Assembly (NCBI RefSeq): GCF_030013205.1
Contig: NZ_CP122648.1
Reading direction: 5' to 3' (one strand)
DNA: 64,000 nt
Source of the DNA: Escherichia coli
Lineage (GTDB): Bacteria > Pseudomonadota > Gammaproteobacteria > Enterobacterales > Enterobacteriaceae
The notes beneath the pieces are model-generated. The model was not told the origin of the DNA, did no database searches, and saw only the letters and a list, made by a program, of their open reading frames with translations. Both the position numbers and the translations under genes were made by a program. This document shows, piece by piece, positions 6,916-13,974 of this stretch; the stretch's first letter is position 1, and each line of letters starts with the position of its first letter.

Positions 6916-7647
6916 TCAGGCTGTTACCAAAGAAGCCGCAACCTGGCGCTCATCAGAAATAATGTGCGTGACCTCATCCAGATGCCCGATGCGGGCTTCC
7001 CCTGAACGATTAAATTTACTTTTATCAATCAATAACAACGATTGCGCGGCGCGTTTTAATAGCATTGATTTGTAATCAGCGTTGATGGCATTGGAGTCCC
7101 ACAGTGCGCCGCTGCTATCGATCCCTTCACAAGAAAAAATAAACAGATCGATTTCCAGCGATTTAAGTTGGGAAATCAGCGAGGGATTGACGTAACAACC
7201 ATATTTGCGCTCAAGTGTGCCGCCGGAACTGATCAGTTGAATGCGTTCACGTTTACCGAGTTCATGGCAAATCGGATGGCTATTGGTGAAGACCTGGATG
7301 TTGATGTCAGGCAACTGGCGTGCCAGATACCAGCAGGTTGAACTGGCGTCTAAGGCTATTACCATCCCTTCTTCAATCCACGCGAGCGCCTCGCGCGCGA
7401 TATCTGCTTTATGCGCATAATGGCTTTTCAGCCGGATGTGAAAGGGATCGCCACTGTCTTGATTTTGACGGTGGATATATTTAGCGCGCCCATGATTGCG
7501 CAGAATTTTACCCTGCGTCTGTAATTCATTGAGATCGCGACGAATGGTTTCTTTACTGACCTTTAGCTGTTCAGAGAGAGCTTCCGTGGTCAGGCTGGTA
7601 TGGTTCAGCAGCAGGTCGACTATCGCTTGCTGGCGTGCCGCTTTCAT
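6916..7647 (-). CDS. fucR: DeoR-family L-fucose operon activator
   Basis: Start set at MKAARQQ (ATG 7645-7647); ORF-track start at 7656 is an upstream in-frame GTG. Confidence 0.9.
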   Translation of the reverse strand: MKAARQQAIVDLLLNHTSLTTEALSEQLKVSKETIRRDLNELQTQGKILRNHGRAKYIHRQNQDSGDPFHIRLKSHYAHKADIAREALAWIEEGMVIALDASSTCWYLARQLPDINIQVFTNSHPICHELGKRERIQLISSGGTLERKYGCYVNPSLISQLKSLEIDLFIFSCEGIDSSGALWDSNAINADYKSMLLKRAAQSLLLIDKSKFNRSGEARIGHLDEVTHIISDERQVAASLVTA

Positions 7648-11463: not shown

Positions 11464-12780
11464 TCAGTTAGTTGCCGTTTGAGAACGGAAACGGGCAAAG
11501 ATAAAGATGACTGCGAAGCAGAGTGCCGGGATCAGTTCGGCAGTGGGGATGTTGCCCGCTGCGTCACTGACAAACCCCATGACCGGAGTGACAATACCGC
11601 CGCCAATAATGGTCATAACGATGAAGGACGAACCGTATTTGGTGTCCTGGCCGAGATTTTTAATGCCCAGCGAGAAGATTGTTGGGTACTGAATCGACAT
11701 AAAGGCACTGCATAAAGTCAGGGCTATTAAGCCCACATGACCGCCAGCGAAGGCTGAGATCAGGCACAGTGCCATAGCGATTAATGCGTAGGCGGCCAGG
11801 ACTTTGTGTGGTGCGAAGCGACTGATGAGCCAGGTACCGGTGAAACGACCAATAAAGAAGCACACCATGGTTCCGGTTAAATAGTTAGCGGCAAAGCCTG
11901 CAGTCATACCTGGAATTTCTTCTACAGCGTAGCGAATCAAATAGCTCCAGCAGGCCGTTTGTGCGCCGACATAGCAGAATTGCGCTAATACCGCCCAGCG
12001 CCAGTGACGAATACGCGCCAGACGAGAAAGCGATGCGGAGAACGATCCTTGTTTGGCGTCACTGTGATTATCACTCTGCAATGCCGGGAATTTCGTCAGC
12101 ATGATCAGCAGGGCGACCAGTAACACGATAGCCACGATGATCATATAAGGTGTCTGTACCGATAATACCAGGCTGTGTTTATACGCACTCAATTGCTCTG
12201 GAGACATTTTATCGAGAACGTCTTGCGATTGATGTGGCACGTTAGACAAAATAAGACTTTGCCCAAAGACAACCGCGATAATTGCGCCAAATGAGTTAAA
12301 TGTTTGCGCAAGATTTAAGCGGAAGTGACCACTGCTTTCCGGCCCTAATACCGTAACAAAAGGGTTTGCGGCAGTTTCCAGACAACCTAATCCGGCTGCA
12401 ATAATAAATAGGCCAACTAAAAATAAGGTGTAGTTCATTATTTCTGCAGCGGGCCAGAATAATGCAGCGCCCAAGGCATATAAAAATAATCCGGTAATAA
12501 TCCCTGCTTTATAACTGAGTTTTTTCATCAATATCCCGGCAGGGATTGGGATAATGAAATAACCAAAGTAAAAGGCCGATTGGATCAGGCCAGCCTGGAA
12601 ATTTGTCAGCGTAAAAGCCTGCTGGAATTGAGGTAATAAAATGTCGTTAAGGTTATTGGCTACCGCCCAAAGAAAAAACAGTGAGCACAGCAGCGCGAAT
12701 GGAATAATGTAACTTCTGCTTTGCCCTGCATCTTTATCTACCGCACGGTAACTCTGCGTTTGTATTGATGTGTTTCCCAT
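11464..12780 (-). CDS. fucP: L-fucose:H+ symporter (MFS)
   Basis: 438-aa polytopic membrane ORF, recognised FucP. Confidence 0.95.
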   Translation of the reverse strand: MGNTSIQTQSYRAVDKDAGQSRSYIIPFALLCSLFFLWAVANNLNDILLPQFQQAFTLTNFQAGLIQSAFYFGYFIIPIPAGILMKKLSYKAGIITGLFLYALGAALFWPAAEIMNYTLFLVGLFIIAAGLGCLETAANPFVTVLGPESSGHFRLNLAQTFNSFGAIIAVVFGQSLILSNVPHQSQDVLDKMSPEQLSAYKHSLVLSVQTPYMIIVAIVLLVALLIMLTKFPALQSDNHSDAKQGSFSASLSRLARIRHWRWAVLAQFCYVGAQTACWSYLIRYAVEEIPGMTAGFAANYLTGTMVCFFIGRFTGTWLISRFAPHKVLAAYALIAMALCLISAFAGGHVGLIALTLCSAFMSIQYPTIFSLGIKNLGQDTKYGSSFIVMTIIGGGIVTPVMGFVSDAAGNIPTAELIPALCFAVIFIFARFRSQTATN

Positions 12781-13097
12781 AGCATCCTCTTAGGTTCAGA
12801 AGCTTAAGCACGTAATCGGTTATGTTTTCAAAAGTGCAAAACCAGCGAGTTCGGGCTTCATATCAGTGAATATTTGCCTGTCAGAAATGAACTCATGGAT
12901 TCATTTTCAAATAAAAAACGCTCTGTAATATGACGGCGGTCACACTTATTAGCTGGGAGGTGACTTTATGTGACTACCATCACTTTAATAATCGAAATTT
13001 CATGCCCGTTTCAGAAAATAAATCATAAAAAACACAAACCCGATGACCGTATTAATTGTTTGTGCCGAAAACGGGCATTTCTGGCGAGAGGGAATGG

Positions 13098-13141
13098 AAA
13101 AATGACCGTTTTGATAAATATTTTTAAGAGCGGTCATTTTT
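13098..13141. promoter_or_regulatory. inverted repeat in divergent fucPIKUR / fucAO control region (candidate operator)
   Basis: aaaaatgaccg-N22-cggtcattttt; a third ATGACCG copy at about 13043; lies in 546-bp divergent intergenic region. Confidence 0.3.
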
Positions 13142-13326
13142 AATGGGGTTATAAAAAGAGAAGTTGCAGTTATTTACTGTGATTAGTTGAACCAGGTCAC
13201 AAAATATAAGCTTGTGAATTTCTTTCTTGTTAATCAGGAAGAAGATGGTGGGTAATTAAACGGCTAATTCAATAGTGTGAAAGGAACAACATTATTGCCC
13301 TGTTTTGAATCAGAGAGAGGTAGCTA

Positions 13327-13974
13327 ATGGAACGAAATAAACTTGCTCGTCAGATTATTGACACTTGCCTGGAAATGACCCGCCTGGGACTGAACCAGGG
13401 GACAGCGGGTAACGTCAGTGTACGTTATCAGGATGGGATGCTGATTACGCCTACAGGTATTCCATATGAAAAACTGACAGAGTCGCATATTGTCTTTATT
13501 GATGGCAACGGTAAACATGAGGAAGGAAAGCTCCCCTCAAGCGAATGGCGTTTCCATATGGCGGCCTATCAAAGCAGACCGGATGCCAACGCGGTTGTTC
13601 ACAATCATGCCGTTCATTGCACAGCAGTTTCCATTCTTAACCGACCGATCCCCGCTATTCACTACATGATTGCGGCGGCTGGCGGTAATTCTATTCCTTG
13701 CGCGCCTTATGCGACCTTTGGAACACGCGAACTTTCTGAACATGTTGCGCTGGCTCTCAAAAATCGTAAGGCAACTTTGTTACAACATCATGGGCTTATC
13801 GCTTGTGAGGTGAATCTGGAAAAAGCGTTATGGCTGGCGCATGAAGTTGAAGTGCTGGCGCAACTTTACCTGACGACCCTGGCGATTACGGACCCGGTGC
13901 CAGTGCTGAGCGATGAAGAGATTGCCGTAGTGCTGGAGAAATTCAAAACCTATGGGTTACGGATTGAAGAGTAA
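13327..13974 (+). CDS. fucA: L-fuculose-phosphate aldolase
   Basis: 215-aa class II aldolase ORF. Confidence 0.95.
   Translation: MERNKLARQIIDTCLEMTRLGLNQGTAGNVSVRYQDGMLITPTGIPYEKLTESHIVFIDGNGKHEEGKLPSSEWRFHMAAYQSRPDANAVVHNHAVHCTAVSILNRPIPAIHYMIAAAGGNSIPCAPYATFGTRELSEHVALALKNRKATLLQHHGLIACEVNLEKALWLAHEVEVLAQLYLTTLAITDPVPVLSDEEIAVVLEKFKTYGLRIEE

Follow-up and report, generated by a model that had tools for sequence, protein, structure and literature searches.

Several DeoR-family regulators of Escherichia coli work with CRP co-regulation, namely GlpR at the glp operons, AgaR at aga, UlaR at ulaG-ulaA, and DeoR at deoCABD. The FucR boxes of the fuc control region appear to differ from the operators known for these four proteins both in sequence and in their inverted spacing of 29 bp. 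A second kind of partnership with CRP is found at melAB (MelR) and at malE-malK (MalT), where an upstream activator helps CRP onto an imperfect site and CRP recruits RNA polymerase. The fuc region resembles these two systems in the stereospecific spacing between the activator and CRP sites, but FucR belongs to the DeoR family, whereas MelR and MalT belong to the AraC or MalT family. FucR is also unlike GlpR, AgaR, UlaR, and DeoR in that it acts from far upstream (-130 to -260) and through CRP. With these proteins it shares a DeoR-type helix-turn-helix, a sugar-phosphate sensor, several operators, cAMP-CRP, and an effector that is a phosphorylated intermediate; yet they are repressors that the effector releases, while FucR is an activator and binds in its liganded form (partly from PMC12632272).

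Induction of fucAO requires FucR and CRP, between which a cooperative step has been proposed (PMC11011485). The FucR motif comes from DAP-seq and is a single 15-nt box, given as ...AAACGG[T/G]CAT (Baumgart 2021, as quoted in PMC11011485) and, in consensus, as G/A C/T C/G A/C A/G A/T/C A/T CGG T/G CA T/A T/C/G (PMC11011485). Zhang et al. 2024 (PMC11011485) name two such boxes, OFucR2 (ccgaaaaCGGtCAtt) and OFucR3 (ttaagagCGGtCAtt). Mutation of OFucR3 lowers the fucose-induced activity of PfucAO more than 50-fold, mutation of OFucR2 lowers induced fucAO activity by about 30%, and the loss of induction upon box mutation is specific to FucR and to fucose (PMC11011485). Zhang et al. 2025 (PMC11894529) count four FucR operators, two of which, OR0 and OR1, are called 'putative' for fucPIKR. 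A literature search found no footprint or gel shift of FucR on individual boxes in the portions of text that it covered.

The window analysed here, a stretch of 64 kb, comes from an E. coli chromosome. Within it, fucP (11464-12780, minus strand) and fucA (13327-13974, plus strand) flank a spacer of 546 bp (12781-13326), and the gene order fucR-fucU-fucK-fucI-fucP <> fucA-fucO is confirmed. Many E. coli genomes carry this spacer with 100% identity, and a match is found in 5024 of 5426 complete ones. In the remaining 402 (about 7%) nothing matches the fuc control region; one of the matches is located on a plasmid. The regulator gene fucR (6916-7647, minus strand) is the last gene of the fucPIKUR operon and codes for a DeoR-family activator at 5.6 kb from the boxes. 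The assignment of FucR to this family in the original prediction is borne out by its Pfam domains, HTH_DeoR (E = 7e-23) and DeoRC (E = 2e-45). A PDB search for a relative of FucR with a solved structure returned nothing at E <= 1e-5; its weak matches are the sensor domain of E. coli DeoR (7l6l, E = 0.2) and unrelated winged-helix proteins.

The word ATGACCG is present in the spacer at 13043-13049 (plus strand), 13102-13108 (plus), and 13131-13137 (minus), that is, three times within 95 bp. The last two copies form the palindrome aaaaATGACCG-N22-CGGTCATtttt (13098-13141), in which exactly 22 bases separate the heptamers. These copies, the N22 palindrome, the repeat TGTGA-N14-TCACA, and the 546-bp spacer are the sequence elements on which the original prediction was built, and all are found as described. 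The published FucR core CGG[T/G]CAT corresponds to ATGACCG on the opposite strand, with a full form ATG[A/C]CCGTTT. When the fourth base may be A or C, ATGCCCG is added at 13002 (plus) and 13072 (minus), and CGG[T/G]CAT is then present on one strand of each of five boxes, named by their starts: a (13002), b (13043), c (13072), d (13102), and e (13131). Hence the count of three ATGACCG was right but the set was incomplete, both ATGCCCG having been missed. The earlier reader was misled by the counting of exact words: this gave three copies, not four, because box c has a G where K-12 has a T at the free position of the motif. Of OFucR2 and OFucR3, only the copy in OFucR3 was listed.

ATGACCG and ATGCCCG are very probably FucR operator cores in a control region shared by the two operons, from which liganded FucR and cAMP-CRP would switch on both fucPIKUR and fucAO. 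The candidate operators proposed by the original prediction agree with the published motif, with the effect of the OFucR3 mutation, and with conservation across genera. One might still object that the repeats arise by chance in an AT-rich spacer, or that they bind another factor (CRP or SrsR), since the 14 copies of ATGACCG in the whole 64-kb window are unremarkable (8.7 expected, and 14 is reached by 10 of 100 shuffles). Such an origin is highly improbable, because the local clustering has a P of about 1e-4 to 1e-6. On both strands, ATGACCG has 3 copies in the spacer and 11 in the remaining 63,454 bp (0.095 expected in the spacer, Poisson P = 1.3e-4), and ATGMCCG has 5 spacer copies in 136 bp versus 0.18 expected (Poisson P = 1.4e-6); among 200,000 shuffles of the spacer, at least 3 copies are found in 7 and 5 copies in none. 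Moreover, the word is unlike the CRP consensus, the FucR and fucose specificity of the published induction loss (PMC11011485) argues against another factor, and the position and orientation of the boxes are conserved out to Yersinia and Photorhabdus.

This conservation was analysed by searching a single genome of each species with FucA, which gave 80 loci, 49 of them with a divergent fucP. In 46 of these 49 the encoded FucP is at least 76% identical, and with the window's own this makes 47 spacers. An unbiased MAFFT alignment covers 17 genera, from Escherichia to Yersinia and Photorhabdus. In this alignment the cores of boxes b, c, and d (TG.CCG / CGG.CA with the TTT/AAA flank) are invariant, and boxes a and e are nearly so, with degenerate forms in Mangrovibacter, Rahnella, Kosakonia, and Photorhabdus. 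The cores stand out as conserved islands while the flanking sequence varies freely, and the fourth position of a box is also free, with A, C, or T. The motif conservation to which the original prediction looked is thus found: the boxes are kept from Escherichia to Yersinia in both position and orientation.

The distances between boxes are as conserved as the boxes themselves. Among the 47 spacers, adjacent boxes in (+,-) orientation lie 29 bp apart start-to-start in 73 of 87 cases and 30 bp in 11, so that 84 of 87 inverted pairs have the 29-30 bp that correspond to a fixed spacer of 22 bp. The N22 spacers are 84% A+T, versus 64.5% for the whole spacer. The distance from a to b is 41-42 bp, and only that from c to d changes between species (19-52 bp), the other spacings being fixed. 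As controls, one such pair is found in 247 kb outside the spacers, and two among 31 loci of FucA paralogues without fucP, one of which resembles a genuine fuc unit.

The FucA of these 31 loci without a divergent fucP is 82-88% identical to E. coli FucA. They include Citrobacter, Atlantibacter, Enterobacter hormaechei, Buttiauxella, and E. whittamii (L026, L033-L040, L044-L046, L048, L050, L052-L054, L056-L065, L067-L069, L072), and presumably represent a paralogue or a rearranged cluster. In Serratia sp. DD3 (L060:2310-2345), ATGCCCG-N22-CGGGCAT with an AT-rich spacer is found about 190 bp upstream of fucA, and no FucP homologue was detected adjoining this unit.

Starting from the fucP side, box a (13002-13011, minus strand) reads ATGCCCGTTT on the plus strand and AAACGGGCAT in the published orientation, and points toward fucP. 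Its position and orientation are kept in nearly all of the 47 spacers, and it is probably one of the two 'putative' operators OR0 and OR1 in the text of PMC11894529. At position a' (13028-13037, plus strand), which follows box a at a distance of exactly 22 bp, lies a conserved block, AAAAACACAA. It reads AAAAnCCACAG in other genera and is degenerate in Enterobacteriaceae, and in Photorhabdus (L076, L079, L081, L082) it is a perfect CGGTCAT. Judged by its sequence, a' resembles a degenerate partner box and is a plausible weak sixth FucR box; alternatively, it may be a site for another factor. Box b (13043-13052, minus strand; ATGACCGTAT on the plus strand), which the original prediction listed as its third copy, also points toward fucP, and its columns T264, G265, C267, C268, and G269 are invariant in the 17-genus alignment.

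Box b forms with box c a pair ATGACCG-N22-CGGGCAT, with 29 bp from b to c in 34 of 35 loci; the b/c and d/e pairs can both be written ATGACCG-N22-CGGKCAT. Box c is OFucR2 (13065-13079, plus strand) and is directed toward fucA. It reads ccgaaaaCGGgCAtt here and ccgaaaaCGGtCAtt in K-12, where the locus is the same, and the two differ by one change (T in K-12, G here), which turns CGGtCAt into CGGgCAt at the free position of the motif. Its AAACGG.CA is invariant across the 17 genera. Box e is OFucR3 (13124-13138, plus strand; ttaagagCGGtCAtt), identical to that of K-12; it is the right arm of the palindrome, points toward fucA, and has its centre at -130 from the fucA start.

Box d (13098-13111, minus strand; aaaaATGACCGTTT on the plus strand) is the left arm of the same palindrome. 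Read toward fucP it is atcaaaaCGGTCATtt, which matches every position of the published 15-nt consensus, and its columns T323, G324, C326, C327, G328, and T331 are invariant across the 17 genera. It has no counterpart among the operator sequences printed in the text of PMC11011485 and PMC11894529, and is a conserved box that is probably unannotated as an operator. Boxes a, b, and d, all read toward fucP, are AAACGGNCAT. A further CGGTCA at 12937-12942, inside OCrp0, matches a relaxed pattern and was rejected as a FucR box, its CGG not being conserved in distant genera. It lies 65 bp from box a in many Enterobacteriaceae and is probably only a part of the CRP site.

The palindrome as a whole (13098-13141; boxes d and e with a 22-bp AT-rich spacer) is a 44-bp inverted repeat, and the question arises whether the pair or the single box is the functional element at fucAO. 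Each 36-bp inverted pair ATGNCCG-N22-CGGNCAT could be an obligatory composite operator for a FucR dimer or tetramer. This fits with the 29-30 bp spacing of 84 of the 87 adjacent (+,-) pairs across Enterobacterales, with spacers that are AT-rich and hence bendable, and with the identity of 13098-13142, spacer included, across Escherichia (9 of 9 sequences, from 8 E. coli strains and E. albertii). The published truncations speak otherwise. V5 (-270), which is without boxes a and b, is fully active, so that removing box b, the partner of c, costs nothing, and V6 (-206) keeps about 70% of induced fucAO activity (PMC11011485). V6 starts at 13121 of the window, where boxes c and d and half of the d/e spacer are gone and box e is left alone; its loss equals that from mutating box c alone, with no extra loss from the removal of d. 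A single box is thus enough for most of the fucAO activation, and fucAO does not depend on the d/e palindrome as an obligatory unit. The DAP-seq motif, as quoted in PMC11011485, is likewise a single 15-nt box. An obligatory bipartite operator, downgraded on these truncation coordinates, is accordingly rather unlikely. By the same truncations, fucAO seems able to do without a, b, and d, and box d adds nothing measurable there.

The palindrome could also be read as a DNA cruciform, or as an RNA hairpin or terminator, rather than as protein sites. As single-stranded DNA, 13090-13150 does fold with a 12-bp stem (-10 kcal/mol, z-score -4.5 versus shuffles). A selected stem would be expected to keep its arms complementary, but the free central base of the arms is complementary in 42 of the 84 conserved pairs and non-complementary in the other 42, that is, there is no covariation. 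In addition, the element is probably untranscribed, being upstream of the fucA start (13264) as well as of the CRP sites and the likely promoter on the fucP side; a terminator-like site was sought and none found; and mutation of one arm abolishes only FucR-dependent induction (PMC11011485). The hairpin or cruciform reading was rejected for its lack of arm covariation, its probably untranscribed position, and the absence of a terminator-like site, and has hardly any likelihood left.

The nine Escherichia sequences differ from each other mostly in the c-d linker (13080-13097), a hypervariable stretch of 18 bp; further differences are at 13039-13041 and in the free base of box c. The linker marks the boundary between a fucP-side and a fucA-side module, and the operator boxes on either side of it are invariant despite its hypervariability among E. 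coli strains. Over 12990-13150, an identity to the window of at least 99% is found in only 59 of 5019 genomes, and 1472 are in the 90-95% band.

Four CRP sites are found in the spacer, each with its published sequence. OCrp0 (12926-12947, plus strand; core TATGA-N6-TCACA at 12929-12944) and OCrp1 (12966-12987, plus strand; core TGTGA-N6-TCACT at 12969-12984), both named in PMC11011485 and PMC11894529, lie on the fucP promoter side. OCrp2 (13183-13204, plus strand; ttagtTGAaccaggTCACAaaa) has its core GTTGA-N6-TCACA at 13186-13201 and its centre at -70.5 from the fucA start. The core matches 8 of the 10 positions of the canonical site (TGTGA-N6-TCACA), and OCrp2 has been validated by mutation and is essential for fucAO induction (PMC11011485). 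OCrp3 (13273-13294, plus strand; tagTGTGAaaggaacaACAtta) lies within the 5' untranslated region of fucA and has a 30% effect (PMC11011485). OCrp0, OCrp1, and OCrp2 are invariant across the 17 genera, whereas OCrp3 is conserved in Escherichia only (E. coli and E. albertii). Fixed distances separate the CRP sites from each other and from the boxes: OCrp0 and OCrp1 are 39-40 bp apart in all loci, the centres of OCrp1 and box a 28.5 bp in 36 of 36 loci, and those of box e and OCrp2 58.5-59.5 bp in 34 loci (59.5 bp in the window).

These sites also account for TGTGA-N14-TCACA (13178-13201), the only perfect 5+5 inverted repeat of its kind in the window. Its perfection and uniqueness might suggest a wide-spaced, noncanonical site for CRP or for another regulator. 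Yet the left TGTGA (13178-13182, plus strand) is not conserved outside Escherichia, its columns reading GCGGA, GTGTT, CTCAA, and others in other genera, whereas GTTGA-N6-TCACA is invariant (columns T408, G409, A410, and T417-A421 in the 17 genera), and the N6 reading is the one of the published and mutation-validated OCrp2 (PMC11011485). The halves of the palindrome are 14 bp apart, not 6 or, rarely, 8, and with its left half unconserved it fails the canonical CRP test. The unconserved left arm rules out the N14 palindrome as a CRP site; some regulatory role for the wide spacing is very unlikely, and from the alignment the palindrome is probably accidental. The original prediction was thus correct that it is not a canonical CRP site, but the remark was incomplete, as its TCACA is the right half of OCrp2. 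The published placement of CRP is not elsewhere; it is on this right half, reached through the N6 reading.

Put together, these elements suggest how the region may work. Fucose would be metabolised to fuculose-1-phosphate, and liganded FucR would then occupy the predicted boxes, which comprise five conserved ones and the degenerate a', arranged as inverted pairs with the fixed 22-bp AT-rich spacer. FucR and cAMP-CRP, held at fixed distances, would turn on both divergent promoters. Boxes c and e, directed toward fucA, activate fucAO according to the published mutagenesis (PMC11011485), e being the essential and c the auxiliary one, and box e would act through OCrp2, whose centre is 59.5 bp downstream of its own. 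For boxes a, b, and d, directed toward fucP, the most likely role is at the fucPIKUR promoter, by way of OCrp1 and OCrp0. Behind the 29-bp pairing there is probably a single FucR oligomer that bridges two opposed boxes, and the c-d linker, free in length and sequence, would divide a module of OCrp0, OCrp1, a, a', b, and c from one of d, e, and OCrp2. The joint reading, with c and e assigned to fucAO, a, b, and d to fucPIKUR, a FucR oligomer that couples the promoters by bridging opposed boxes, d as an unrecognised operator, and a linker that separates modules, is tentative, and as a whole falls somewhat short of being probable.

The substance of this layout is already published: the FucR motif, OFucR2, and OFucR3 appeared in 2021-2024, and the CRP sites earlier. 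In the text of PMC11011485 and PMC11894529 the operators are single 15-nt boxes, four in number, whereas five and a degenerate sixth are conserved here; neither the fixed 22-bp pairing nor the variable c-d linker is mentioned in the text of these two articles. The additions are modest, namely box d, a possible sixth position, the 22-bp pairing, the fixed CRP distances, and the variable linker. Their residual value is a refined layout of a textbook regulon, with five to six boxes at fixed distances, which gives precise mutagenesis targets for the cooperation of a DeoR-family activator with CRP at two divergent promoters. The layout is also useful for the design of fucose biosensors.

The promoter elements of fucAO are less clear than its operators. 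Transcription starts at 13264 (plus strand), a C placed 63 nt upstream of the fucA ATG by PMC11011485 and confirmed as this base in the window, and the proposed -10 element is AATTAA (13254-13259, plus strand; PMC11011485). A sigma-70 consensus scan of the fucP-fucA spacer gave no match, which is in keeping with promoters that depend on an activator but says little by itself. The -35 element of PfucAO is placed as 'TTGtgA at -96 to -91' (PMC11011485). At -96 to -91 (13231-13236) the window reads TAATCA, and TTGTGA is found at -115 to -110 (13212-13217), 36 bp from the proposed -10 AATTAA (-73 to -68). The published -35 assignment, as worded in PMC11011485, looks inconsistent with the sequence. 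The conserved GAT(G/A)(G/A)T at 13244-13249 might serve as the -10 instead.

In K-12, the tetranucleotide CTAG at -374 to -371 is a target of IS5, whose insertion there activates fucAO and leads to growth on propanediol (PMC11894529). At 12953-12956 this strain reads CTGG, so that the exact hot-spot tetranucleotide is missing, and the adjoining TTAG (12949-12952) remains.
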